From the IMG/VR virus record IMGVR_UViG_3300033075_000216: 64,000 bases of DNA. One strand, given 5' to 3'. How positions within the stretch are numbered: the first letter of the stretch is position 1; every line of letters begins with the position of its first letter. The position numbers and the translations under genes were made by a program. The DNA comes from an uncultured virus (IMG/VR IMGVR_UViG_3300033075_000216). Taxonomy: Duplodnaviria; Heunggongvirae; Uroviricota; Caudoviricetes. The notes beneath the pieces are model-generated. The model had not been told where the DNA came from, made no database searches, and saw only the letters and a program-made list of their open reading frames with translations. Shown in pieces: positions 7,727-62,858 of this stretch.

Positions 7727-9589
7727 TTATGCTCTAATTCTTCTAACGTCAGCACGCATTGTTCTTGCATTACCGCTGTTAGTTGTTGTATATTTCACTT
7801 CAACGTCAGCTCCGTTAATAGCTGCGCTGAAACTTACACCGACATCTGCTGTGTCGTGAAAATTGTCTGTTACAGATACGTCTGTACCGTTTGTTACAAC
7901 AGTAAGCGTACCAAATCTAACTCTGTTTGTAGTAGCTTCTTTTACTTTATAAACCACTTCTAATGCTTCAAAACTGGCGTGTGCGAAAGTTAAGGCAGTT
8001 ATTACAGTGTCAGTTTGATTATTAGATAGAGTAGTTGCATCAACATATTGTTGCTCGATAAAGTTAGAAGAAGCCGCTCCTTCAGATCTTCTAAGAAGGG
8101 TTGCTTTAACATCTGTATTACCTGAACCGTGAGCGCTCAATACAACAGAACCATTGTTTCCTGTTGTTTGAACGGATAAGTTTGGATTAGAAGCGTCGTT
8201 ATGGCTTAAGCTGTGAGCAAACACATCTTTCCACTCGATAGCATCGCTACCCAAATCGTCTGTATTATTTGTATCCGAGATTAAAGATGTATTGATAGCA
8301 ACAGAAGCTAAGTTACTTAGAGCTGTGCTAGCTTTTCCATCTAGTTGTGTTTGAATAGCGCTTGTAACACCACTCAAATACTGAAACTCTGTATTGTCTA
8401 CTGAACCGTCAGCTATCTTGGTAGCATCGATGGCAGCAGAAGCATTGATCTTAGCGTTAGTGATTCCGCCGTCTTTTAAACGAAGTCCAGAAGCGCTCGA
8501 TTCGATAGTAGTAGCATCTACTTTAGCGCCAAGTTGATTAGATCCATCAATTTGTAAGCTAGGGTTAGAAGCTTCAAGTTTAACTCTTAGTTGACCAGCG
8601 GCGTTTCCAGGATTAGAAGACTCTAAACCAGATACTGTGGCTAGATCTACGCTGATTTGGTTACCAGAGATGCTGATCATATCATGACCAGTGAAAGCAT
8701 TAGATCCAATTTGTGAGAAGTTTACTGGATCTGTGCCAAGAGTAACAAGTTCTTGATATTGATAAAATAGCTTGTCTGCATTAGTAGAACCTTCTGATAC
8801 GGAGATAGCAGCAGAAGAAAGCTCTAGAACAGTATTTGCATCTGAAGATCGTGTGGCAGCAGAGGCAGCACCATTAAATACATATATACCGTTTTCTTCA
8901 GGAAGAGTTTGATCTTTAACCAACACTCTGTCGCCGCTAGAAAGTGTAATACCGTCTACAGCAGAAGGCATAGAAGCTAGGTTTAAGTTAGCAATAGAAG
9001 CTACTCTTGCATATTGTTTCCAGCTACGGCCATCAAGAAGTCCATCTACGTAGTTTTTTGTAGCAGCATCTTGAGCACTAACAGGATCAGCTACGTTAGT
9101 AAGTTTAAAAGATCCCATTGATTGGTCTGCTGTAAAAGCAACAGAACCGTCTTTAAGGATTACATCGCTAGGAGCAAAGCTTGCTGTTGTGACAACACCA
9201 GAACCATCTGTAGCAGCTACTCTAGAAGCTGTCAAAGCAGCCATCTTAGAGAAAGCTATTGCGGCAGCAGAGTTTATGTCTGCGTCAACGATCACACCTG
9301 CTTTAATTGTTAAACCGTTTGTGTGGTCAGCTTGAATGTCGCCAACAGTGTCTGTGTCGATAGCAGCAGACAGATTTGAAGCATCGCCTACGATGATTTC
9401 GCCGTCATTAAGAGCTTGTCCTGTAAGAGACACGCTACCAGCAGCAATGCTCGCCCAAGCACCGTTTACGTACTGTCTAATTGTATTTGTAGTTGTATTA
9501 TAAAATAATTGACCATTCTCAGGAGAAGAGGGGTCTGATGCTAAACTTACTAGTTTAATTGATTGTCCAAATTTAAATATATTTGCCAT
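7727..9589 (-). CDS. Tail fibre/structural protein
   Basis: 620 aa; fibre-type motifs 'NVADPVSAQDAATKNYVD' and 'GDRVLVKDQT..ENGIY'; shared C-terminal module. Confidence 0.7.
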   Translation of the reverse strand: MANIFKFGQSIKLVSLASDPSSPENGQLFYNTTTNTIRQYVNGAWASIAAGSVSLTGQALNDGEIIVGDASNLSAAIDTDTVGDIQADHTNGLTIKAGVIVDADINSAAAIAFSKMAALTASRVAATDGSGVVTTASFAPSDVILKDGSVAFTADQSMGSFKLTNVADPVSAQDAATKNYVDGLLDGRSWKQYARVASIANLNLASMPSAVDGITLSSGDRVLVKDQTLPEENGIYVFNGAASAATRSSDANTVLELSSAAISVSEGSTNADKLFYQYQELVTLGTDPVNFSQIGSNAFTGHDMISISGNQISVDLATVSGLESSNPGNAAGQLRVKLEASNPSLQIDGSNQLGAKVDATTIESSASGLRLKDGGITNAKINASAAIDATKIADGSVDNTEFQYLSGVTSAIQTQLDGKASTALSNLASVAINTSLISDTNNTDDLGSDAIEWKDVFAHSLSHNDASNPNLSVQTTGNNGSVVLSAHGSGNTDVKATLLRRSEGAASSNFIEQQYVDATTLSNNQTDTVITALTFAHASFEALEVVYKVKEATTNRVRFGTLTVVTNGTDVSVTDNFHDTADVGVSFSAAINGADVEVKYTTTNSGNARTMRADVRRIRA

Positions 9590-24050: not shown

Positions 24051-25403
24051 TTAAGTACCTAAAAGTGTAAAGCCTTTATAAGATACTTTCTCAGACCCAT
24101 TCACTACTATCCCAATTTTCACAGAATAGTGTGTTAAGTCTGTCAATAAGGCTGCTGAGACTGGGGTTATTATAAACCTACCATTAACATCCGCACTAAT
24201 GCCGGATTGCGTTAGTCCGCCCACAGCTACACCTGATGCATCATACACTGTATAGTTTGCTGTACCTAGATTACTAAGTTCCACAACTCCGGAGGACTTT
24301 TGTGCCCAAAATACTGCTTGTAGTTGGTTAGATGCATTTATTGAAAATTGTGCTTTAACCTCATACTGAGGAACAGAAGCTTGAACGGCGAACATTTCAA
24401 CTAAGGTTACACTATCTGCTGTTAAGGTAACTCGTACAGAATAACCTGGATAATCCCCTGTTAGTAAACTTGATATAGCGGTTATTTTATATATTCCTTG
24501 TCCATCGGCGGATATACCGCTTTCCGTCATTCCGACAACAGCATTACCATTTTGATCGAACACTTGATAAGATGCTGTCCCTAGTCCTGTAGTTTTCATC
24601 ACTTCGTTAGCAGATATCCAAAAAGAACCATCAAACTGATTACTCTTATCCACAAAGAATAAACCAGATATATCATATTTAGGAGCTTCTTGGATAAGTT
24701 CTGAATAGCCTTCTCTAATAGCGCCATCTACAGTGATGTCTATTTTTACGAGGTAATGATCTAAAGTTTTATTTAGAGTGGATGATACAGGAGTTATAAT
24801 ATACTGACCGTTTGCGTCAGCAGTTATGCCACTTTGTGTCATACCAACAACGGCAGATCCGTTTTTATCATACACTTGATAGGATGCTGTTCCCATCGTA
24901 GCTGTTCCAGTTTTAGCTAGTACTGAGTTCTTTAAACACCACAAAGTTCCTTGAAGTTGATTGGATGAATTTAAGGCAAAGGCGCCTTGAACTTTATAAG
25001 TTTCAGCACTCACAAATACGCCAGTGGAGATAACACTAAAAGACACAGTATTACTGTCTAAATTAGATACACCGTCTCTAGCGCGCACACCGACATAATA
25101 GGTCGTTCCGTTTTGTAAAAAAGAACCATCTCTTAGTGTCCAGAAATCAAATCTAAGAGCGTCAGTAATACCAACCACATTACTAGGATTTGTAAATAAA
25201 CCTACACTAGTAGCTGCTTGACAATACACTTCATATCGAAGAGGTGTAGTTGCGTCTGTAGCTGCCGCCCAAGTTGCACTTATTTGACCTCTAGATCCTA
25301 TTGCCAGTGTTGAAATACCAGCAAATGTCGGAGGGGTCGTGTCGACAATACAGGCGGAAGATGTTCCAACATAGAAGTTATTATTTATTAATAAATTAGG
25401 CAT
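24051..25403 (-). CDS. Structural protein with FN3-like domain and three Ig-like repeats
   Basis: DTTPPTFAG...W.AATD...YYVGVRARD; three copies of G.A.Y.V.D..G.AV.G.T.SGI.AD. Confidence 0.6.
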   Translation of the reverse strand: MPNLLINNNFYVGTSSACIVDTTPPTFAGISTLAIGSRGQISATWAAATDATTPLRYEVYCQAATSVGLFTNPSNVVGITDALRFDFWTLRDGSFLQNGTTYYVGVRARDGVSNLDSNTVSFSVISTGVFVSAETYKVQGAFALNSSNQLQGTLWCLKNSVLAKTGTATMGTASYQVYDKNGSAVVGMTQSGITADANGQYIITPVSSTLNKTLDHYLVKIDITVDGAIREGYSELIQEAPKYDISGLFFVDKSNQFDGSFWISANEVMKTTGLGTASYQVFDQNGNAVVGMTESGISADGQGIYKITAISSLLTGDYPGYSVRVTLTADSVTLVEMFAVQASVPQYEVKAQFSINASNQLQAVFWAQKSSGVVELSNLGTANYTVYDASGVAVGGLTQSGISADVNGRFIITPVSAALLTDLTHYSVKIGIVVNGSEKVSYKGFTLLGT

Positions 25404-25405
25404 TA

Positions 25406-27685
25406 TTAGCTCTCTTTAATCGATGGACGCACATCAACGCCAGGAGGAGTTGTGAAAGTATATCTTACAAGAGTTCCTACAGTGTTGGGTATTGTTCCTA
25501 GAGCTGTCCAAGATAATCCATTAGTAGTAGAATATTCAAACTTAGAAGTGTCTGTGATTGTGTTATTGTTTATTAATAACGCATCTGACAAATCGTATGC
25601 TCTGAAGTATAAAGTAGGTACCGACGTAGCGTAAGCTTTCTTTAATCTAAAAGCAACTCTAGATGGGGTGTTATTGTCTGAGTAATCATCTGAAAATTCC
25701 CAATTATCGGATATTTCAGATAGAGTTTCAAAACCTAAAAACATCTCGCAAACTTGAGCTGGATTAGAACTACCTTCTGAATGCATTCTAAAAAGTATTT
25801 TAAATTGAATTTGACTTCCAGCAGCGTAGCCACTAAGATCTTCAAACGAAGGTAAGTCCGACCATCCACCAGAGATACTTCCAAATCCTGAAGTACGGTA
25901 TTGAACTTTAATATTACCAGTAACGTCATAATATTTTTCTATACTAGTAGTTACTTTCAATACGGCACTCGGAGTGTCTAATACAGGTGTGACTAAATAA
26001 GAGTAGTCATAGTCTGCTTCTGATCTTAAATCTGCTGTTAGTAATATACGTTGGCCTGTAGTTAAGCCAGTAGCAAAAAGTTTACCGTCTTCAAAATCTA
26101 ATCCACCAAAAGAGATTAAACCGATAGAAGCGGATTCTGGTAAAGAGAAACCTTCATAATATGTGTTATCTAATTCACCAAAGATATAATCTATTTGATT
26201 GTTTATAACTTGCTTCATTACTATCTTAGCACCGTTTGTTATATACAAAGCACTATCTAGCACATCTGACCACGAGGCCAAGGTTACAGTCGGAGCTGTT
26301 ATTTGATTAGTAGATCCTAAGATGTTTGATGTAACTAGAGTAGGTAGCGTGGTTGCTCCAGCAGTTAGATTACTTAAGCGCACCAGATATAGATTAGATG
26401 AGGTGGCGAAGAAGGCACAATCAAAACCTGCGTTTACGGTGTGTTGCGGTGCGGCCTTGTCTTCTGAATCTGAAGTTAAAAGCGTTCCGGTTAAAGCTGG
26501 AAGATTTGCTGTTTTATGACTCCACATAGCCGAAGTTTCTGCAAAAGCCCTACCAACAGTACAAGTTCCTGCGGTTGTTATGTTTATTGTAGCACCGCCA
26601 GAGGTTGCTGAAACTTGAAAAGTGTTAGCTGTTGCATTTCTTACAAAGTATATCGTGTTATTTGTTAATCCGACACCGCCAGAAAGATCACTAACTAAAA
26701 TTGGATCGTTATTTTGAAATGGGTGAGCATTGTATGTAATCGTATCAGAAACATCGCTAATAACTAATGACGTAACGTTTGAATACGTAGGTGTAGCGGA
26801 AGTATCGTATACATGATATTGATGTGTTGCAGCAACGCCATTATGAACATATAAGCGGTTAGCTGAACTATCTAGAACGCTACCAGCAACAGCTGTTTGA
26901 TAATATATTCCACCTATTTGAGCAGAGCCAGAAGATCCTGTAGTGTTTATAGAAGCTCCGCCTACGGTAGCTGACAATTCAAAGTCATTTACGCCAGGAT
27001 TACGAACGTAGTATGTTGTGTTTAGGGCTAATCCAGTAGGTAGTGTTCCATAAACAAAAATAACAGGGTCGTTTACGTGAAATGGGTGAGCTGTGTAACT
27101 TACTTTACCTGGAGAAGCTACGCTAACCGTAACAGCTGCTGTATTTACAGATACTCCATCTCTTAAACGATAAACAGCTTTTTGGTCATTACCTGTTGCG
27201 AAAGGTATGGTAGAGGGTATTGTCACAAAGTCTGCCAAATCAACTTTATTAACTAAAAGAGTTCCTCCGTTAAAAGCTACAGAACCTGATGTAGAAAAGA
27301 ATATTTTCCATCCAGTAGTTCCTGTATCTATTACCTTAAAAGCTCTTATTGTGTGCGTAGTAGCTGCGGTGTTTGGTACAGAGAATCTTATCTGACCTAC
27401 ATAAGTATTCACATTTGTTGTATTATTGTGCGTGTATAAGGCAACACCATAAGTACCGGCGACAACTAAGAAAGGAACGAAAACCCTTTGATTTGACGTT
27501 TTAAAAATAGGTCCTGCCGGAGCAACTCCGGAGTCTGTGAACATATCATTTATTTTTGTTAAGGGTGGGCCTAAGTAGTCTGCGCCGCCTAGAGTTTTTT
27601 GCGTAACTCTTCCTTGAATAGTTGTTTTTGTTTGATCATACGAACCTACTATGTTATCTAATAGGCCGGCTTTTATAAGTTTCAT
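25406..27685 (-). CDS. Structural protein with two internal repeat domains
   Basis: 759 aa; two copies of HPF..NDP......GL..NT.Y.VRN...N.F..SAT.GGA.IN.T. Confidence 0.6.
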   Translation of the reverse strand: MKLIKAGLLDNIVGSYDQTKTTIQGRVTQKTLGGADYLGPPLTKINDMFTDSGVAPAGPIFKTSNQRVFVPFLVVAGTYGVALYTHNNTTNVNTYVGQIRFSVPNTAATTHTIRAFKVIDTGTTGWKIFFSTSGSVAFNGGTLLVNKVDLADFVTIPSTIPFATGNDQKAVYRLRDGVSVNTAAVTVSVASPGKVSYTAHPFHVNDPVIFVYGTLPTGLALNTTYYVRNPGVNDFELSATVGGASINTTGSSGSAQIGGIYYQTAVAGSVLDSSANRLYVHNGVAATHQYHVYDTSATPTYSNVTSLVISDVSDTITYNAHPFQNNDPILVSDLSGGVGLTNNTIYFVRNATANTFQVSATSGGATINITTAGTCTVGRAFAETSAMWSHKTANLPALTGTLLTSDSEDKAAPQHTVNAGFDCAFFATSSNLYLVRLSNLTAGATTLPTLVTSNILGSTNQITAPTVTLASWSDVLDSALYITNGAKIVMKQVINNQIDYIFGELDNTYYEGFSLPESASIGLISFGGLDFEDGKLFATGLTTGQRILLTADLRSEADYDYSYLVTPVLDTPSAVLKVTTSIEKYYDVTGNIKVQYRTSGFGSISGGWSDLPSFEDLSGYAAGSQIQFKILFRMHSEGSSNPAQVCEMFLGFETLSEISDNWEFSDDYSDNNTPSRVAFRLKKAYATSVPTLYFRAYDLSDALLINNNTITDTSKFEYSTTNGLSWTALGTIPNTVGTLVRYTFTTPPGVDVRPSIKES

Positions 27686-39840: not shown

Positions 39841-40675
39841 ATGTCTCCCACTTACTTAACAACGTTAGATCTCCCGCCTAATTTAATAGTGTCTGTTGAC
39901 GTAAACTTCACTCATGGAAGCCTTGTCGTGTTTGTCTACACTACAGATAGAACTGTTGTCAATCGCATCGATGTAGATTGGGCGGTTATGTACAATACAC
40001 CCAAACTGGAAGCTGTGGTTAAAAACACACCCTTATATAAACTATATGATTCTAAGTATTATAGAAAAAAGCATACCAAAAAATCTTAGGTTTCACACTC
40101 GATACGCGACCAGCTCCGACTCCTATATAATATCCCTATTTTATAATAAAAGAATACAACAGTTTGAGGTGGCAATGCCTATAAACGAAGAGGGTATGCT
40201 TGAGGCTATAAAACAATGTATTCTGTACAAATTAGCAACAAGTAAATGGGGGATGCGTGCTTCTGACAGACTTTGAGAGAATGGTGAAACAGCATAATCC
40301 TGATATAAGACTTTTCCACGACTACTATCAGGAGCATGTCGTAGTGTTTTCTGACAAGTATAGCTATATAATTGACTTTTATAGAGTGTCTAGTGGAAAC
40401 CTACCTAAGTCGTTTTATAGGTTTCTAACTGTTTCGTCGTCTAAATGGATAAAAAGGAGAATGTTGTGTCAAAAGAAGAATTTGAAGACTTGGTGATGAA
40501 AACACATCCCAAGCTGTTCCTGGTGACGTATGATCACAAAGACGTCGTAGGACTATACTACAACGACACTTACTTGTTCGATGTAACAGGATATGAGTTG
40601 GCGCAACCTCAGCTACCCGATAGAGTAAGGCGCATATTAAAACTATGTAGTACTAAGTGGGCTCGTCTGCCTTAG
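39841..40675 (+). other. Four small CDS (39841-40089, 40046-40276, 40257-40496, 40445-40675) with the shared C-terminal motif
   Basis: DSKYYRKK / TSKWGMR / SSKWIKRR / STKWARL. Confidence 0.55.
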
Positions 40676-40832
40676 GGCGATATTTCTTCCTTCCCCACTT
40701 GGTGTTGTCTCTTATGTTTTTAAACCTTTTAAGACGAGGAAGCAGGTCGTCTCGTTCATGAGGCTCTAATATACCAATCATAACCAACACCTCAAGTTCA
40801 TGCTCTATTTCTTCAAGCTCGCCGCTAAACAT
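40653..40832 (-). CDS. Small protein (59 aa, not in ORF track) with the shared motif
   Basis: MFSGELEEIEHELEVLVMIGILEPHERDDLLPRLKRFKNIRDNTKWGRKKYRPKADEPT. Confidence 0.55.
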   Translation of the reverse strand: MFSGELEEIEHELEVLVMIGILEPHERDDLLPRLKRFKNIRDNTKWGRKKYRPKADEPT

Positions 40833-41100
40833 TTTGACGAGTCTTCTTATTCATACATTTCTTAGAACACATACGAGCCGTGTGTCTGGCAGGGGTGAAG
40901 GTCTCCCCGCATATAACGCACGCCTTGGGGGCATGGCTGCGTTTAACGTAGCCGGTACGAAGCCTACCCTTAAAACAGTCATAGCACGTCCTACCGTGCC
41001 ATTGGCCGCCGTTATCATCGATGTAGACGAAGTTACGCCCTTCTGTCACACCCTTTAATACATACTGCTTCTCTACATTACAAATTTTACAAGTTCTCAT
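40825..41100 (-). CDS. Double Zn-finger protein
   Basis: CKIC, CYDC, CVIC, CSKKC; directly after late motif copy 6. Confidence 0.7.
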   Translation of the reverse strand: MRTCKICNVEKQYVLKGVTEGRNFVYIDDNGGQWHGRTCYDCFKGRLRTGYVKRSHAPKACVICGETFTPARHTARMCSKKCMNKKTRQNV

Positions 41101-41103
41101 ATA

Positions 41104-41116
41104 ATATAGTTGTTAA
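41104..41116 (-). promoter_or_regulatory. Putative late promoter motif (copy 6)
   Basis: Exact 13-mer, 3 nt before ATG 41100. Confidence 0.65.
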
Positions 41117-41844: not shown

Positions 41845-42151
41845 GGTTCAAGAAGCCCTACCCTCTCCTCCGGCTACTTATAACGAGGTGGCTAACGTAA
41901 ACACTGTTACTATTAGAGTGTCGTTGGATAATGGTTTATTCGTCAATAAAGTGTTTGAATCTCGCTGGGATGCTGATGGTCATCTAGAGGAATCTGCACT
42001 GGAGCAGTATGAAGGCTTCAAACGTGACCTTGCGTTTAACTCCGGGAAAGGATTCTTTAAATTAGAGAATGTAGCCCACTATGCAGGGGTTACAAAGATC
42101 GAAGAGTTTTACGCAGTGAGCACAGTGACGGTTACCAGGAAGGCCGCGTAA
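41780..42151 (+). CDS. Hypothetical protein
   Basis: AAGGAG RBS; 123 aa. Confidence 0.5.
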   Translation: MLKRMIERLRNLLMNLRNRASEVQEALPSPPATYNEVANVNTVTIRVSLDNGLFVNKVFESRWDADGHLEESALEQYEGFKRDLAFNSGKGFFKLENVAHYAGVTKIEEFYAVSTVTVTRKAA

Positions 42152-42181
42152 GCGCTAACGCCTTACAGCCTGACACTGTTT

Positions 42182-43167
42182 ATGACCATACATTATGTAC
42201 GCCTAGACAAGACAGGCTATTACATCGTGCATCAAGACAGCCGCACCTACTTACTTCACTTAGACGACAACAGAGCTTTGGAGATATTGAATACAAAGTT
42301 TATGAAAAAGAAGTTATATCGCATTAAACATCTTATAACATTAGCAGATGTCTACAAGGGGATAAAGCTTGAAGATACTTAGAGTGCATGTAGATCCTAA
42401 TCATATCGTTGTGTTATATGACGACTGGACAATAGCCACCGACCATAGTGCTAGAGCAAAGTTATATACGATTGATAACTTAATGGATTATGACTATTTT
42501 ATGAACGGTAGGATATGTAAAAACATTACACATATTTATACGACAAAGTGGGGACGGAGAAGATATGGGAAAAGACTTAACGTCTTACAGCTTAGCATTG
42601 GTTTATGAAAATATACAAGATGTCTAAAATTCCGCCTACTTACGTAGTTGATATTCCCAACCTGGTAAGATTAGTTGTTGTTGAAAGAAATAGACGCGGA
42701 AAGTATATTCTTCAAAAAAAACCTGCTACAGAAATAGAAATTAGACTTTGTAAGCTATTGAATACAAAGCACTATCGCAATAGGTTGAATAGATTATGAT
42801 ATTACGAGCGCACATAGGTGAGGAAAGAATTAGCATCTTACAGCTCGGCATTGCTCTCCCCACCTTCGGACAAGATATGAAGATATATAAAGTAATGTGG
42901 TTTTCAGCTTGTAATAAGGTAAAGGAGCAAGACTTATTAATAAATACTAGAAACAATTGGTTTAAATATACAAACAATGAGCTTATTAGTATTCCTACTT
43001 GTACAGAGATGTTACATTTTTCAGATGATGTGTATAGCATTAGTTGTAAGTGTACTTTTATGTGTAGGATTCTTATAAAGCCCAAGTTAAATATAAATAA
43101 CACTAAATGGCATAGGATTAAACATAGAAAGCTATTCATTGCTATAGAGGGACTTAATGCATTATGA
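42182..43167 (+). other. Four small CDS (42182-42382, 42369-42608, 42605-42799, 42877-43167) with the shared C-terminal motif
   Basis: NTKFMKKK / TTKWGRRRY / NTKHYRNR / NTKWHRIKH. Confidence 0.55.
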
Positions 43168-43487
43168 AGATAGCATGTTTAAGGCCTCTAGCAGGCTGTC
43201 TGTTGAACGTAAACAGAGTGGTTGAGGGTAAGGTAGCAACCAGGGTGTGTTTGTGGCTATAGAGGGGAAACAGGTGCGGGAGGAATGAAGGTTTTACAGG
43301 GTGATGTTTTCTCAAAGTGGTGGAGAGGGTATAAGTCTATTCCCACTCCCCCTCAAACCTCCCCTACCCCCCTGGCATGCCCGCTGGATAAAACAAGACA
43401 GCATACGTTTTGCTTTCGCAAAGCCGTGGTGTTGGTTGACAACTAGGTTAGATTAGGCTAACATGTTAATAAGGTGTATGTTTTATG

Positions 43488-43505
43488 TTGGCATGCTTTT
43501 TGCAA
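43488..43505 (+). promoter_or_regulatory. Sigma-54-like -24/-12 element
   Basis: TTGGCATGCTTTTTGCAA, GG-N10-GC; no clear downstream ORF. Confidence 0.45.
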
Positions 43506-43989
43506 GACAACGTGTTTTCGTTTGATGAAAGCAAGTTATTGTAATTCTTAGTAAGAAGGTTTAAGTATTGAGAATGTTTAAGGAATAAAAACGTATTGGA
43601 GATGTATTGCACTAACCCTCTCCTTCCTTCCCTCTTCTCTCCTCTTCCATGTCTTCATCCAACCACATGTCTTCGTTGTATATATTCATTATAGAAACAC
43701 ATATAAACCTGTACAGCTATGTTATTGACATGCTTAGATATTGGTGTCTCGCCCTCACTTGATGGTTCGGGCTACAAAACAACGGGAAGAATGCCCGAGA
43801 CGTGCGAACGTATTACAAGCTCTTGGCTTGTCGCTAGACAAACGAACTGGGCGTCGCTTGACGCGCGCCGGTTGCGACTGTTCGCTAACATGCTTATGTT
43901 TAAGATATTCTGTAATATACAGAGACTCAATAGCTCAGCGAGCCAACAAAGGCGAGCGATAGTGTTTAAAACAAAGTAGGGTTTACTAG

Positions 43990-44481
43990 ACATACCAGTC
44001 CCAATAATGCCTAATTGTTCATGGGCAAGTTGTTGCTGTTGATAAAGAATACCAACCTATATGCTTTCCTTTTACCTAGCCCGGAAAGTTAGGGCTTCCT
44101 TGATTTTGTAACCGTGTATTTCTTACCCTGTAAGTTCATTACACTCACTACAGATAGATGACACGAACAATAGGTTTTCAAGGTACCATGTAGAGCCTTT
44201 TGGGTTTACACTCGTGTGGCTTCTGGTAGGACATTTATCCTATTCGTCCAGTATGTGGCCTACAGTCTATTTGATAGTAGGTCCCACGGTGCATGTCTCT
44301 CTACATTGCCCTGGCTACCACGACAAGTGTCTTTTGGTGCTTGCCCCACGCTCTGAGCCAGATCTTAGCATCATCCAAGCTTGCGGCTTGGCGGGTACGT
44401 TCTATTACCATGCCAGACTAAACGTACAACTTTCTGACAATATGCTTAATACATTAACACTGCCGGTGACACAGTGTCAAT
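43990..44481 (-). ncRNA. Candidate large structured ncRNA
   Basis: Begins right after late motif copy 7; many nested stems; three stems give G-U pairs on minus but A-C mismatches on plus. Confidence 0.5.
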
Positions 44482-44494
44482 ATATAGTTGTTAA
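44482..44494 (-). promoter_or_regulatory. Putative late promoter motif (copy 7), not followed by an ORF
   Basis: Exact 13-mer. Confidence 0.6.
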
Positions 44495-44553
44495 TTCTCC
44501 AAGATATTCTTATGGTGACATTTTACGTCAATACAACAGTAATAGTTTCGCGT

Positions 44554-44651
44554 GGTTCAAAAATTGTCAGACATTCGTCTAAGTCTTAAACACATAAACT
44601 ACATCCAACCTCTTGATGTTCTTAGCCGCGCGTTGTGGCACAGCACATGCA
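44554..44651 (+). promoter_or_regulatory. Sigma-54 promoter with conserved upstream box (early 1)
   Basis: TGGCACAGCACATGCA (GG at 44637); box AAATTGTCAGACATTCGTCTAAGTCTTAAACA. Confidence 0.6.
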
Positions 44652-44664
44652 TTAGCTTATATAC

Positions 44665-44766
44665 ATGAACGCTTTATTAAACCTAACAATAGCGATAGTA
44701 ATAATGGCCGCTTGTTTCTATGTTCATCCTGTTCTTGGCATCATTAGCGTTTGGGCTTTGTTATAA
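44665..44766 (+). CDS. Small hydrophobic protein (33 aa)
   Basis: MNALLNLTIAIVIMAACFYVHPVLGIISVWALL, just after the sigma-54 site. Confidence 0.45.
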   Translation: MNALLNLTIAIVIMAACFYVHPVLGIISVWALL

Positions 44767-44779
44767 TCTAGGAGGTTTT

Positions 44780-44929
44780 ATGACACAACTTATACAAGAG
44801 TACATGCGTATACATTCAAAGTGGGTGTACAATTCAATAGAGGGCGTGCCAGAGGCCTTAAAATGGGAATATACACAAGACCAACTTATGCTTAGCTGGC
44901 TTAGAACTAAAATACAGGAAATGTTATGA
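44780..44929 (+). CDS. Hypothetical protein (start MTQLIQEY)
   Basis: AGGAGG RBS before ATG 44780. Confidence 0.5.
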   Translation: MTQLIQEYMRIHSKWVYNSIEGVPEALKWEYTQDQLMLSWLRTKIQEML

Positions 44930-45159
44930 AACGCACAATTACAATAAAGAAATTACATAAGGACCTAGGCTTTGCTTTGGCGGATTCTTACGATGTTAAG
45001 GACGTTTTTATCAGCGTTGCGTCTAAGTTTTCAAACAAACAAGAGTTTAAACATTTAGAAATAGGTGATAAGCTTAAAGTATCAATTGTGGAATGCGAAA
45101 GAGGTTTATTTGCCTATAGTATCAATTACGTAACTAAGGCTTTTAAGGAGATGTTGTGA
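44926..45159 (+). CDS. Cold-shock/OB-fold-like protein
   Basis: K.L....GFA......DVF.......F..LE.GD.L...I....RG..A. Confidence 0.55.
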   Translation: MKRTITIKKLHKDLGFALADSYDVKDVFISVASKFSNKQEFKHLEIGDKLKVSIVECERGLFAYSINYVTKAFKEML

Positions 45160-45296
45160 GACTACAAATGAGTACGTACTCATTTGTTGGGACAGTACCT
45201 AAGCCACTTTATAATATTAGTCATAGCAATAAAAAGTTATTATAATGGCTAAAAAACTTATGATTTGGATGCATGATAATGGTCTAGGAGCTTAAT

Positions 45297-45578
45297 ATGA
45301 ACAATGTAGAGTTTAAACGTAAAGCACTTGGGGACTTGAAAGATCGCTTACCTGAGCGTATATTATTTACTCTTCAACGTGAGCTAGAGAATTGGAAGAA
45401 TAAAGATCCAAGCGGACTACTCGACGAACATAAAATGCGATATACTTTCTTATCCGTACTTAAATGGCACGGAGTTGAATGTCCACATCCATGGCGCAAA
45501 CAGATACACGAGCATATACCTATGGAAGATGGATATGAATGTACAATGTGCCGAGCTTATATCATGAGGAAACTTTAA
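45297..45578 (+). CDS. Hypothetical Zn-binding protein
   Basis: CPH...CTMC. Confidence 0.5.
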   Translation: MNNVEFKRKALGDLKDRLPERILFTLQRELENWKNKDPSGLLDEHKMRYTFLSVLKWHGVECPHPWRKQIHEHIPMEDGYECTMCRAYIMRKL

Positions 45579-45889
45579 TGGCTAAAAACTTATATAAGAA
45601 AAGACTTAAGGGTCATTATACTCAAGGTAAAGAATATAAAGGCGATTCTTTTGAGCGAGCCTATGCTAAAAAAGAAATTGTTGAATCAGTAAAAGAAATG
45701 AATGAAAACTATAAGCATCCATATAAAAAATCTAAACGTAACAGAAACATAAAGGCAAAGCTAAAGTATAAAATTGAATACTATGAAAAAGTCATTGAGT
45801 TATATAAAGAACTTAATGATAAAAAAATTTTAGCTATTCTACAAAAAGGTCTTATAAAAGCTAAGAAACAATATGAGGAAGAACAATGA
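45578..45889 (+). CDS. Basic hypothetical protein
   Basis: TAATG coupling; starts MAKNLYKK. Confidence 0.5.
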   Translation: MAKNLYKKRLKGHYTQGKEYKGDSFERAYAKKEIVESVKEMNENYKHPYKKSKRNRNIKAKLKYKIEYYEKVIELYKELNDKKILAILQKGLIKAKKQYEEEQ

Positions 45890-46155
45890 GCAATATTAAT
45901 TGGAACGAAGTAGCATGGTACGCTTATAAGTGTAGTTATCCTAATATGTTACAGTTAGCTCTAAACAACGGAGCTATAGTTAATTGGAACGACGTAACAT
46001 ATTATGCATATAATTATCCTAACATGTTATATCTAGCACTAAATAATGGGGCTTCAATTAGTTGTGGTAGGGTAGCATATTATAGCATAAAAAACAATCA
46101 CAAAGAATTATTAAAATTAGCTATTGAAAATAACGCTGATATGACTTGTTTGTAG
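45886..46155 (+). CDS. Ankyrin-like repeat protein
   Basis: Three repeats ending ML.LALNNGA / LLKLAIENNA. Confidence 0.5.
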   Translation: MSNINWNEVAWYAYKCSYPNMLQLALNNGAIVNWNDVTYYAYNYPNMLYLALNNGASISCGRVAYYSIKNNHKELLKLAIENNADMTCL

Positions 46156-47007: not shown

Positions 47008-47637
47008 GTGAAACATTACAAGTTGACAGATGAATATATAGAAAAAGCAGGTAGAAAACTTTATAGAATACAGGCAACTGTAGACATGCCGCAACATGGT
47101 GTGAAGGCAGGAGACCTTGGCGGGTTTGTGGAATCATACGAAAACTTGTTAGGAAATGCGTGGGTTGCAGACAATGCTAAGGTTTTTGATAATGCACGGG
47201 TTTTTGAAAATGCAAAGGTTTTTGGAAATGCGCAGGTTTCTGGAAATGCACGGGTTTTTGAAAATGCGCAGGTCTACGGAAATGCGCGGGTTTCTGAAAA
47301 TGCTAAGGTTTACGGAAATGCGCTGGTTTACAGAAATGCTTTGATTACAGATAACTCTACGGTTTATGGAAATGCGCGGGTTTATGGAAATGTGCAGGTT
47401 TATGGAGATGCCTGGGTTTGCCTAGGAAATATATCAAAACAAAACCAGCTTTCAACATTTCAAATAGGAAAAGGTTTTCATGCAACGGTAACACCTAAAC
47501 ATGCTACAATAGGGTGCACAACAAAAACACATAAAGAATGGTTAAAGGTTACAAAGAAACAAGCTGTTAAAATGGGTTTACCAGCAAAATTATATAATGT
47601 TTATAAGTCTACATTAAAAGCTGTAATAAGGAGGTAG
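47008..47637 (+). CDS. Hexapeptide-repeat (left-handed beta-helix) protein, paralogue 1
   Basis: LYRIQA..DMP.HGVKAGDLGGFVESYENL plus (GNAxVx)n. Confidence 0.75.
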   Translation: MKHYKLTDEYIEKAGRKLYRIQATVDMPQHGVKAGDLGGFVESYENLLGNAWVADNAKVFDNARVFENAKVFGNAQVSGNARVFENAQVYGNARVSENAKVYGNALVYRNALITDNSTVYGNARVYGNVQVYGDAWVCLGNISKQNQLSTFQIGKGFHATVTPKHATIGCTTKTHKEWLKVTKKQAVKMGLPAKLYNVYKSTLKAVIRR

Positions 47638-54783: not shown

Positions 54784-55403
54784 AGCATTATAAACTAACA
54801 GAAGAATGTATATTTTTTGGAAATAGAAAACTATATAGAATACAAGCGTTAATAGACATGCCGCAACATGGTGTAAAGGCAGGAGACCTTGGAGGCTATA
54901 TCGAATCTTATGAAAACCTGTCAGGAAATGCGTGGGTTGGTGGAGATGCGAAGGTTTTTGGAAATGCAAAGGTTTATGGAGATGCGTGGGTTCTTGGAAA
55001 TGCGCATGTTTCTGGAAATGCGCAGGTTTATGGAAATGCATATGTTTATGGAAATGCTAAAATTTACGATGATGCAAAATTATTTGATAATGCTGCGCTG
55101 AACGTAAGTGCTAGTATATACGGAAACGCTAAAGTGTATGGAAATGCTAGCGTAGGTGGAAATGCTAAAATATTTAACGATGCTAGAATTTTTGATAACG
55201 CAAGAGTGTTCCAAGAAGCGCAGGTTTATGGAATGGCTAAAGTGTCAGGAGATGTTTGTGTGCATGAGAATGCTAAAGTATACGGCCATGCTCAAGTGCG
55301 AGGTGGTGCTGTAGTGTTAGGAAGCACAGAAGTGTTTAATAGGATAATAATCGGGGATAAAAGAAGACCTGTTACAAAGTGGGATATATGCCAGCTAGGA
55401 TAA
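54780..55403 (+). CDS. Hexapeptide-repeat protein, paralogue 2
   Basis: Same N-domain; ATGA overlap with the pol stop. Confidence 0.75.
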   Translation: MKHYKLTEECIFFGNRKLYRIQALIDMPQHGVKAGDLGGYIESYENLSGNAWVGGDAKVFGNAKVYGDAWVLGNAHVSGNAQVYGNAYVYGNAKIYDDAKLFDNAALNVSASIYGNAKVYGNASVGGNAKIFNDARIFDNARVFQEAQVYGMAKVSGDVCVHENAKVYGHAQVRGGAVVLGSTEVFNRIIIGDKRRPVTKWDICQLG

Positions 55404-56714: not shown

Positions 56715-57196
56715 TGAAGCATTATAAACTAACAGACAAACCTATAAAAGTAGGAAGTAGAAAACTATACAGAATACAAGCAACTGTAGACTTACCTAAA
56801 TATTACATTAAAGCAGGAGATCTTGGTGGGTTTGTAGAGTCATATGAAAACCTGTCAGGAAATGCTTGGGTTAGTGACAACGCTGTAGTTTATGGAAATG
56901 CAAGGGTTTATGGTAATGCGCTTGTTTCTGGAAATTCGTGGGTCTACGGAAATGCGCACGTTTTTGAAAACGCTACAGTAGAAGATAATGCACGCGTTTA
57001 TGGAAATGCGTGGGTTTACGGAAAAGCCCGTATACAAGATTATGCAAAGGTTTGTGGATATTCAAAAGTTTATGGACATACTTACGTAGACAACATACAA
57101 GAAATTTATAACATTGTCGTAAAAGAGAACACATATAGAGCCGTTACTACGTGGGATAAAAAAAATAGACATATTCACGAACAAGAGAAGGATTAA
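56714..57196 (+). CDS. Hexapeptide-repeat protein, paralogue 3
   Basis: GTG start at 56714; same N-domain. Confidence 0.75.
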   Translation: MKHYKLTDKPIKVGSRKLYRIQATVDLPKYYIKAGDLGGFVESYENLSGNAWVSDNAVVYGNARVYGNALVSGNSWVYGNAHVFENATVEDNARVYGNAWVYGKARIQDYAKVCGYSKVYGHTYVDNIQEIYNIVVKENTYRAVTTWDKKNRHIHEQEKD

Positions 57197-59404: not shown

Positions 59405-60049
59405 ATGAAAAGATATTATAAATTAACAAAACAAAGCAGAAAATTGTACGGAAGAAAACTATATAGAATACAGGCTTTAGTGGATATGCCGCAACATGGT
59501 GTTAAGGCAGGAGATCTTGGCGGGTTTGTAGAGTCATATGAAAACCTGTCAGGAAATGCTTGGGTTAGTGATGACGCTAAGGTTTTTGACGATGCGAAGG
59601 TTTTTGGAAATGCTAAAGTTTCTGGTAATGCTGAAATATCAGGCATGGTTAAAATTTTTAATTATGCACAAGTTTATGGAAATGCTCAGATTTGGGGAAG
59701 TGCTGTTATTTTTCAAAGCGCTAGTGTTTTTGATGACGCCAACGTTTTTGGAGATGTAACTATTTGTGGAGATGCAAGAATTTATAAAAAAACTCTGCTA
59801 TGCGGACAATCCACACCGATTAATACAGGAGACATAACAAATTCTAATCAAGTTTCTACTTTTAGAATAGGAGGCTTTATTGGAGTAACGATTTTGCCAA
59901 AGTGTGCAATAATGGGTGGAGAAATTTTAACACACAAAGAAGCTGTGAAACTTAAAAAACAAGAACTAGTGAAGTTAGGTTTACCAGCAAAGTTGCACAG
60001 TGTTTATAGATCAACATTAAAAGCTATAATAAAGAGTGTACCGTGCTAG
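59405..60049 (+). CDS. Hexapeptide-repeat protein, paralogue 4
   Basis: Same N-domain and type-A C-domain. Confidence 0.75.
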   Translation: MKRYYKLTKQSRKLYGRKLYRIQALVDMPQHGVKAGDLGGFVESYENLSGNAWVSDDAKVFDDAKVFGNAKVSGNAEISGMVKIFNYAQVYGNAQIWGSAVIFQSASVFDDANVFGDVTICGDARIYKKTLLCGQSTPINTGDITNSNQVSTFRIGGFIGVTILPKCAIMGGEILTHKEAVKLKKQELVKLGLPAKLHSVYRSTLKAIIKSVPC

Positions 60050-61496: not shown

Positions 61497-62211
61497 AAAG
61501 ACATTATAAATTAACGAAAAAAAGTATAAAATTGTACGGTAGAAAACTATATAGAATACAAGCAAACATAGACATGCCACAACATAATGTGAAGGTGGGA
61601 GACCTTGGTGGCTACGTTGAGTCTTATGAAAACCTGTTAGACAATGCTTGGGTTGGCGAAAATGCAAGGGTTTGTGATAATGCGAGGGTACGCGGAAATG
61701 CGCGGGTTTCTGGAGATGCATGCGTTTCTGGAAATGCATGTGTTTCTGGAAATGCAAGTGTTAGTGGAAATGTATTGGTTTTTGATAATGCTTGGATTTA
61801 TGGACGTGCGTATGTTTATGGAGACGCACGGGTTTTCAATAATGCTTGGATTTATGGACATGCGCAGGTTTACGGAAAGGCATTGGTTTGCGAAAATGCG
61901 CAGGTTTACGGAAATGCATTGGTTTGCGAAAATGCGCGTGTTTACGTAGATGCAAAGGTTTGTGTAGGAAAGCTAACAAAAACACAACAAGTTTCAACAT
62001 TTCAAATAAGAAGTGGTTGTCGTGTGACAGTGACACCTAAGCATGCTACAATAGGATGTAAAACTATGACGCATAAAGAGTGGCTAAAGGCTACAAAAAA
62101 GCAAATAATTGAAACGGGTTTACCAGAAGAGTTGTATGATATTTATAAATCAACACTAAAAGCTGTAATAAAGAGCATGTCGTGTTAGTTTACATGGAAG
62201 CTTGTCATAAG
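61460..62211 (+). repeat. 22-bp direct repeat TTACATGGAAGCTTGTCATAAG (61460-61481, 62190-62211) flanking paralogue 5
   Basis: Exact match read from the sequence. Confidence 0.85.
61493..62188 (+). CDS. Hexapeptide-repeat protein, paralogue 5
   Basis: Same architecture. Confidence 0.75.
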   Translation: MKRHYKLTKKSIKLYGRKLYRIQANIDMPQHNVKVGDLGGYVESYENLLDNAWVGENARVCDNARVRGNARVSGDACVSGNACVSGNASVSGNVLVFDNAWIYGRAYVYGDARVFNNAWIYGHAQVYGKALVCENAQVYGNALVCENARVYVDAKVCVGKLTKTQQVSTFQIRSGCRVTVTPKHATIGCKTMTHKEWLKATKKQIIETGLPEELYDIYKSTLKAVIKSMSC

Positions 62212-62219
62212 TGGAAGAT

Positions 62220-62858
62220 ATGAATAGAAATTCTAAACTAACAGAAGAAAGTGTACAAATATACGGTAGAAAATTATACAGAATACAGGCTCTCGTAGAC
62301 ATGCCGCAACATGGAGTGAGGGCAGGAGACCTTGGCGGATATGTGGAATCTTATAATAATCTACTAGACAGTGCTTGGGTAGGAAATAATGCACTAGTTT
62401 TTGGTGGTGCGCAGGTTCGAGGAAATGCATGTGTTTATGAGTATGCACGAGTTTTTGGAAATGCGCAGGTTTATGATAATGCAAAAGTTTACGGAAATAC
62501 GGTAGTTTCGGAAAACTCAAGAGTTTATGAAGATGCGAGAGTTTATGGTCACGCACTACTTTGTCTAGATGCTAGTGTTTATGGAAATGCAGAGGTTTAT
62601 GGAAGTGTATATGTTCCTGGAAATGCGAAGGTTTGTGTAGGAAATATATCAAAACAAGATCAACTCTCAACATTTCAAATAGGCAAAGGCCCTAATGTAA
62701 CAATAACTCCTAAGCATGCTACAATAGTAGACAAAACGTTAACACATAAACAATGGTTAAAAATAACAAAGAAGCGTGCATTTAGAATAGGCATACCGGA
62801 AGATTTGCTTAACGTTTATAAATCAACATTAAAAGTTATAATGAGGAGAGTTTCGTGA
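62220..62858 (+). CDS. Hexapeptide-repeat protein, paralogue 6
   Basis: Same architecture. Confidence 0.75.
   Translation: MNRNSKLTEESVQIYGRKLYRIQALVDMPQHGVRAGDLGGYVESYNNLLDSAWVGNNALVFGGAQVRGNACVYEYARVFGNAQVYDNAKVYGNTVVSENSRVYEDARVYGHALLCLDASVYGNAEVYGSVYVPGNAKVCVGNISKQDQLSTFQIGKGPNVTITPKHATIVDKTLTHKQWLKITKKRAFRIGIPEDLLNVYKSTLKVIMRRVS

Follow-up and report, generated by a model that had tools for sequence, protein, structure and literature searches.

A candidate late transcription unit for a structured non-coding RNA in a phage genome of the Caudoviricetes

We examined a 64,000-nt stretch of DNA (hereafter the window) from the virus record IMGVR_UViG_3300033075_000216 of IMG/VR, and observed a block without coding signal that carries an exact copy of a motif otherwise found before late genes. 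The block is better conserved among relatives than the neighbouring gene, and one compensatory base-pair change was observed within it. With moderate confidence, we propose from the sequence that the block is transcribed late, as a discrete unit, into a structured RNA of about 515 nt, which would represent a new family. The features described below are collected in Table 1.

Table 1. Positions of the features observed or predicted in the window. X3-X6 are four metagenome sequencing runs whose contigs align to parts of the region; strand is given where it applies.
Feature	Positions	Strand	Remarks
Whole non-coding gap	43168-44779		between plus-strand genes 42796-43167 and 44780-44929
Seventh copy of TTAACAACTATAT, presumed late promoter	44482-44494	-	the sole copy with no ORF behind it
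Conserved block	43951-44513		about 93-100% identity in X3-X6 contigs; all four runs cover parts
Proposed non-coding RNA, about 515 nt	43966-44481	-	putative ends; fold z, non-coding codons, no Rfam, tRNA or Pfam match
5'-terminal hairpin, 11 bp, 7-nt loop	44481-44471/44463-44453	-	pair probability 0.96; begins one base after the motif
Central multi-branch domain, predicted	44074-44363	-	closing helices 44363-44355/44082-44074 (0.96) and 44348-44343/44095-44090 (0.87)
Two hairpins, CCUAC/GUAGG and CUGG+UAGGAU/GUCCUA+CCAG	44223-44284	-	probabilities 0.95-1.00; in the most conserved core
Hairpin GUGAGU/ACUUAC	44130-44148	-	probability 0.95; site of the sole compensatory change seen
Peripheral hairpin GUUGGUA/UAUCAAC	44038-44056	-	specific to this phage; lost in relatives
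3' extended hairpin, candidate terminator	43967-44020	-	helix probabilities 0.84-0.98; 3' arm runs into UUUGUUUU
X3 block piece	43986-44277		12 differences
X3 block piece	44294-44458		1 difference
X4 block piece	44057-44215		5 differences
X5 block piece	43951-44159		15 differences
X5 block piece	44286-44513		7 differences
X6 block piece	43979-44145		7 differences
X6 block piece	44168-44318		0 differences
X3 flank piece, coding	44615-44931		30 differences in 317 nt
X4 flank piece	43487-43739		14 differences in 253 nt (about 94% identity)
X5 flank piece	42082-42229		14 differences in 148 nt
GCATTTCCATAAAC repeat sites	47231-47411, 54967-55147, 56901-57009, 59613-59685, 61737-61917, 62464-62590

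Results

A late-gene motif with one orphan copy

The window contains most of a phage genome, and a close relative was absent from the collections searched. Open reading frames (ORFs) at positions 1-33320 lie on the minus strand and include those for the terminase large subunit, the portal and a tail-fibre-like protein, while the ORFs from 33521 on lie on the plus strand and include those for a MoxR-type ATPase, a VWA-like protein, a primase-helicase, a DNA polymerase, a PD-(D/E)XK nuclease and an ERF protein. A 13-mer, TTAACAACTATAT, was observed seven times in the window, with all seven copies exact and all seven on the minus strand, compared with a mean of 0.33 copies in 100 shuffles, none of which reached seven. 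Six of the seven copies precede late ORFs, one of them directly before the portal gene and another before the operon with the terminase large-subunit gene. An ATG ORF of at least 40 aa begins 3-5 nt after the motif at four copies, 18 nt after it at one and 111 nt after it at one. Because the motif is placed before structural operons we infer that it is a late promoter. A T-rich stretch was observed upstream of every copy, including the seventh, and related contigs carry their own versions of the motif (ATAACATATA in G001, AAACATATATA in G002, AATAACATATAG in G004 and TTAACAACTTAT in G005). A scan of window proteins revealed neither an RNA polymerase nor a sigma factor. A literature search with the motif string returned only unrelated papers and no relevant match, and the RNA itself was sought by this string together with general terms.

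Several side observations concern the other copies and repeats. The late operons at the copies at 1888, 15957, 30805 and 41104 have their ATG 3-5 nt after the motif with no Shine-Dalgarno sequence, unlike many internal genes, where one is present, and the first late mRNAs may therefore be leaderless or near-leaderless. The copy at 41104 heads a second late unit inside the early region (40656-41116, minus strand), in which the first gene behind the motif encodes 91 aa and weakly matches HNH-endonuclease-related PHROGs; an overlapping ORF of about 58 aa, read from the sequence by eye, comes next. The commonest word in the window, GCATTTCCATAAAC, recurs with its near copies at an 18-nt period and is a coding repeat, not a regulatory motif. 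It belongs to several paralogous genes of the YdcK-type beta-solenoid or hexapeptide kind, at least six of which are in the replication region, and the same kind of 18-nt coding repeat was seen in G001.

The gap around the seventh copy

The seventh copy lies within a gap whose non-coding-like interval (1552 nt) is longer than any other in the window or in five related contigs. The GC content of the gap is 0.427 versus 0.385 for the window, with values of 0.42-0.52 within 44100-44499 versus 0.32-0.40 in the flanking genes. None of the three largest gap ORFs had a Pfam match. Using a codon-usage log-odds score (LLR) trained on 22 long window ORFs, all 11 gap ORFs scored 0.10 per codon or less, while 14 of 15 neighbouring small genes presumed to be real scored above 0.10. 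Together with the lack of any ATG ORF of 40 aa or more in the 400 nt behind the motif, these results confirm an initial annotation of the window in which the seventh copy had no credible ORF behind it. On the opposite strand, no plus-strand ORF with coding-like codon usage was found in 43951-44513, and there is no overlap with an opposite-strand gene of the kind that defines a cis-antisense RNA. No iterons were found in the gap and no tandem repeats in the block, the window has no second copy of the block, and a hand count showed no enrichment of GGA motifs.

The remainder of the gap and its edges have features of their own. A long G-rich/C-rich hairpin at 43262-43374 contains four minus-strand G-runs, for which a G-quadruplex may be possible, and a 33-nt pure polypyrimidine tract lies on the plus strand at 43613-43650 (TRF: CCTCT x6). 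To the left, four successive small plus-strand ORFs (42369, 42605, 42876, 43164) start with MKI(L/Y/A), with TATGAAGATA repeated at two of the starts, and look like a run of early paralogues ending at the gap edge. To the right, the gene at 44780-44929 has an AGGAGG site before its ATG, and an extended -10-like sequence, TGtTATAAT, was noted by eye at 44759-44767 on the plus strand, 12 nt before this ATG. This sequence, which the signal scan did not call, may be a promoter at the gap edge that belongs to the right-hand early block. An inverted repeat of 33 nt (43174-43207/44833-44865, about 85% matched) brackets the whole gap and scored above a local shuffle control. In a region-wide control its score of 36 lay between the mean (27.9) and the maximum (42) of the shuffles, and the repeat is probably a chance occurrence. 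Transposon ends and an invertible switch at the gap were rejected because the repeat was not above this region-wide control.

Conservation of the block among relatives

A sequencing-run index gave two runs with 99% of the stretch, from which the record probably derives, and four runs (X3-X6) with 6-10% of it, none listed as RNA. The latter come from four studies and were sampled from a biofilm, two wastewaters and a groundwater. Contigs of X3-X6, with depths of 2-6, were aligned to 42000-46000 with an aligner threshold of 80 in 100 letters. Because words taken from 43000-45000 were used to retrieve these runs, their coverage here is partly a product of selection, and our conservation counts use only the parts with contig cover in X3-X6. 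The core of the block had 1 difference in 316 nt, whereas the coding piece beside it had 30 in 317 nt (Fisher p = 1.5e-8). Summed over all pieces, the block had 47 differences in 1371 nt and the flanks had 71 in 1010 nt (p = 8e-5). The X5 contigs align through the seventh motif copy as far as 44513 and turn unlike past this point (16 letters) and past 43951 (255 letters), which places the ends of the conserved block slightly upstream of the motif and slightly beyond the 3' hairpin. Two length changes were observed within it, a net 17-nt deletion at 44034-44056 in X3, X5 and X6 and a net 8-nt indel at 44473-44482 in X5 (an insertion), neither of them a multiple of three. Judged by these comparisons, the block behaves as a discrete selected non-coding unit, in which the apparent parts are the motif, the 5' hairpin, the conserved core, a variable peripheral hairpin and the 3' hairpin with its U-tract.

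The same alignments bear on whether a small protein gene was missed, for example the 73-aa ORF at 43772-43993 (minus strand) or the 122-aa ORF at 44214-44582 (plus strand). Although gap ORFs of 73-122 aa exist, we consider such a gene very improbable, since neither ORF had a Pfam match and their codon LLR values (-0.13 and -0.01, respectively) are in the non-coding range. The insertion seen in X5 falls within the 122-aa ORF, and relatives change the ATG of the 73-aa ORF at 43993, with similarity falling under the threshold just inside it.

The high identity of the block could alternatively reflect recent recombination. A decaying remnant, in which a fortuitous or leftover promoter copy has no present function and the identity comes from recent descent or recombination, would fit with the observation that every homologue is a close relative, with the modest fold z and with two substitutions that break predicted pairs (see below). 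We nevertheless think this improbable, as the 13-mer is exact, the core carries its single difference against the 30 of the neighbouring gene in the same run (X3), and the block has been kept across four studies and different habitats.

Searches for known families and further homologues

Rfam 15 gave no match at the gathering score in the whole window. With E values up to 10, five weak hits were obtained in 42500-45200, all far under gathering, and the sole hit inside the block was SNORD66 with 15.4 bits versus a gathering score of 32. The initial annotation had recognised no known RNA family here, and the block matched none in these searches. ARAGORN detected no tRNA or tmRNA in the 64-kb window, and a blastn search of a phage collection with 43100-44700 found no DNA similarity. 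Relatives in IMG/VR were collected by their terminase, giving 35 loci that were at most 49% identical. Four whole IMG/VR contigs have structural and replication genes in common with the window. Of the window ORFs at about 33-50 kb, however, only three have a match in these contigs, and all three are about 2 kb or more away from the gap. BLAST and nhmmer searches with the gap against 179 loci (1.10 Mb) returned the motif alone or nothing. The VWA-like neighbour had no relative in IMG/VR; the primase-helicase had one relative in the JGI metagenomes (35%), and no block homologue was found in the JGI metagenomes reached through it. Three exact core probes had no hits in IMG/VR, one exact core probe had none in prokaryote genomes, and a single-sequence covariance model of 44098-44183 recovered only itself in 49 sources (0.77 Mb). 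Homologues of the block were found only in close relatives, at about 90-100% identity.

Searches built on the motif itself were set aside. The motif plus one base gave 120 hits that were mostly chance, the motif plus ATTGACA gave 12 hits in IMG/VR that lie within coding sequence and are chance, and three IMG/VR fragments (G006-G008) have the exact motif in common with the window and no match beyond it. The block showed no complementarity to the rest of the window above chance. Its best complement to a phage mRNA, a perfect 14 nt between 44003-44016 and 25394-25407 in the start region of the late gene 24051-25403, had an E value of 0.1 and is at chance level, and relatives change position 44014 inside it.

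Predicted fold of the minus strand

The minus strand of 43990-44481 had a minimum free energy (MFE) of -142.7 kcal/mol with a z of -1.59, and 9 of 100 shuffles were as good, while the plus strand had -124.2 kcal/mol and a z of +0.06. With the 3' hairpin added (43960-44481) the minus strand reached a z of -2.06, with 3 of 100 shuffles as good. The best local windows of 150 nt on the minus strand were 44175-44324 (z -3.34) and 44400-44549 (z -3.15), the latter with a z of +0.68 on the plus strand. As controls, a 653-nt coding stretch gave -0.82 and a 722-nt non-coding gap of G001 gave +0.36 and +0.21. Folding beyond chance is predicted to be modest and confined to one strand. The initial annotation had expected an energy better than that of shuffled sequence, which holds modestly for the minus strand and fails for the plus strand; its view that the better-folding strand is that of the promoter agrees with our results.

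A number of the stems proposed in the initial annotation recur in the computed ensemble. The hairpin placed straight behind the seventh copy is predicted with one pair more than the 10 bp first counted, and the stems CCAAGC/GCTTGG (0.91), CCTAC/GTAGG (1.00) and TAGGAT/GTCCTA (0.97) are all predicted with high pair probability. For GTTGGTA/TATCAAC the pairing itself is predicted at 0.99, but the stem is missing in relatives through the net 17-nt deletion. The long-range pairing ATGTAGAG/CTCTACAT is present in the MFE fold, though a competing pairing leaves each at about 0.5. The stems CTGGCT/AGCCAG, AGCCC/GGGCT and GTACGTT/AACGTAC are weakened by other pairings that compete with them, and the long-range stem GGGCAAG/CTTGCCC was found in no MFE, centroid or MEA fold and would be broken by the relatives' change at 44344. 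The 3' hairpin is AU-rich and would be an atypical terminator; canonical GC-rich terminators occur elsewhere in this phage, and a consensus terminator scan did not call the hairpin.

We assessed 13 substitutions against this fold among the differences listed (30 substitutions and 15 indels lie outside, and four indel-region sites were left out). Five fall at unpaired positions, six keep a pair, counting one two-sided change, and two break a pair. The two-sided change, observed in X3 and X5, combines 44147 U>G with 44131 A>C and converts a U-A pair to G-C in the hairpin at 44130-44148, a compensatory replacement. In the same two runs 44146 G>A converts G-U to A-U. A change at 44020 in the 3' hairpin likewise turns G-U into A-U, one at 44477 in the 5' hairpin turns A-U into G-U, and one at 44217 keeps its pair via G-U. 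The pair-breaking changes, 44344 G>A and 44063 C>A, affect pairs predicted at 0.95-0.96. The former breaks one pair of the closing helix 44348-44343/44095-44090, which argues against this helix as well as against the long-range stem that the initial annotation had placed there. Read from the plus strand, the window version of the hairpin at 44130-44148 contains an A-C mismatch. Read from the minus strand, the hairpin pairs in the window and in the relatives alike, which speaks for the minus strand. A single compensatory pair out of about 13 changes, seen in relatives that are still about 90-100% identical, is suggestive but falls short of proof.

Strand and conservation also bear on two other readings of the block. 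In the first, the orphan late promoter fires against early plus-strand transcripts that cross the gap, as late antisense transcription or transcription interference, and the fold is incidental. The unit does lie between two plus-strand gene blocks and points against both. An orphan copy of the G004 motif (28503, minus strand) offers a parallel, having the same layout as the unit here: a contig's own late motif within the early region, directed against early genes, with no ORF behind it. In this 82-kb phage contig, 28080-28503 on the minus strand (8080-8503 of locus L162) is antisense to plus-strand ORFs including one for a 35-aa hydrophobic peptide, with about 390 nt running antisense to small plus-strand ORFs. 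Unlike the G004 unit, the block overlaps no credible plus-strand ORF; the G004 unit shows no fold signal (z -0.76) and no similarity to the block (local alignment score of 12 versus a shuffle mean of 12.05). Moreover, the core has changed far less than the neighbouring gene, and interference needs neither a compensatory pair nor folding specific to the minus strand. We regard this reading as unlikely.

In the second, the block acts at the DNA level as a cis element (a replication origin, a packaging site or genome ends), with the promoter only opening or marking the DNA. T7 has gene-less promoters near its ends and origin, and the gene-less promoter observed here resembles these; the long non-coding gap between operons and the odd adjoining tracts (the G-run hairpin and the polypyrimidine tract) would also suit such an element. 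However, the block is raised in GC and not AT-rich, iterons and tandem repeats are absent, the flanking inverted repeat is not above chance, folding differs by strand, and one pair is kept via G-U on the minus strand only. A cis element seems to us improbable.

Discussion

In the reading that we favour, the block (43951-44513) would be transcribed late, as a self-contained unit, into a non-coding RNA. Synthesis would run along the minus strand from just after the seventh motif copy, and the RNA would start with the tight 5' hairpin and continue for about 515 nt through the multi-branched fold. Its end would probably be the long hairpin followed by the U-tract, at about 43967, with read-through to about 43170 as an alternative. 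The left part of the gap (43170-43960) itself folds on the minus strand (z -2.87, versus -0.97 on the plus strand, 20 shuffles each), and a longer late transcript may thus be possible. The RNA would most likely work through its fold, persisting late in infection and either binding a protein or self-assembling, and base-pairing to a target would be a less likely mode. The same view is taken of the large phage RNAs GOLLD and ROOL and of an abundant ICP1 transcript.

The RNAs that come nearest to the candidate in size, in phage origin and in having no known function would be GOLLD, ROOL and this transcript of phage ICP1. GOLLD and ROOL are described in PMC7567579 as several hundred nt long, highly structured, often found in phages or prophages, often beside tRNA genes, and of unknown function, with GOLLD accumulating in lytic growth. 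A cryo-EM study reports that both form RNA-only multimers (bioRxiv 10.1101/2024.12.08.627333). While alike in the three respects named above, the candidate differs in having no Rfam match at E up to 10 and no tRNA in the window. The ICP1 RNA is described as an abundant and large non-coding transcript that arises in a gap without ORFs in a lytic phage, not beside tRNAs and with a function given as unknown (PMC7567579). The candidate would likewise come from an ORF-free gap with no tRNAs nearby; its gap (43100-44700) has no DNA similarity to records of the phage collection, which may or may not include ICP1. The candidate would be a new family of a known kind of RNA.

Among phage RNAs with a late role, the pRNA of phi29 is a phage-encoded structured RNA of about 170 nt that takes part in DNA packaging. 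The candidate is much longer and matches no Rfam family, and the phage studied here has an ordinary terminase large subunit and portal. A part in packaging was one of the roles suggested in the initial annotation, which also named a decoy and an antisense RNA.

The approach taken here shows that metagenome contigs of low depth can reveal a non-coding block to be under selection even when it has no database homologue. A further and more specific proposal, which we put forward as doubtful, is that the candidate founds a new family of large late phage RNAs that work as a folded machine or a decoy. If this were true, the RNA might be a part of the packaging or assembly apparatus, or a sponge that sequesters a host protein of defence or RNA decay, and the late promoter of the phage would have been recruited for making the RNA in bulk at the time when virions are built. 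The assets of the unit are a defined phage promoter, a likely terminator and a small conserved core, and the material is apparently culturable, with two runs holding 99% of the stretch. Such a compact example would offer a tractable system for asking what these large RNAs do.
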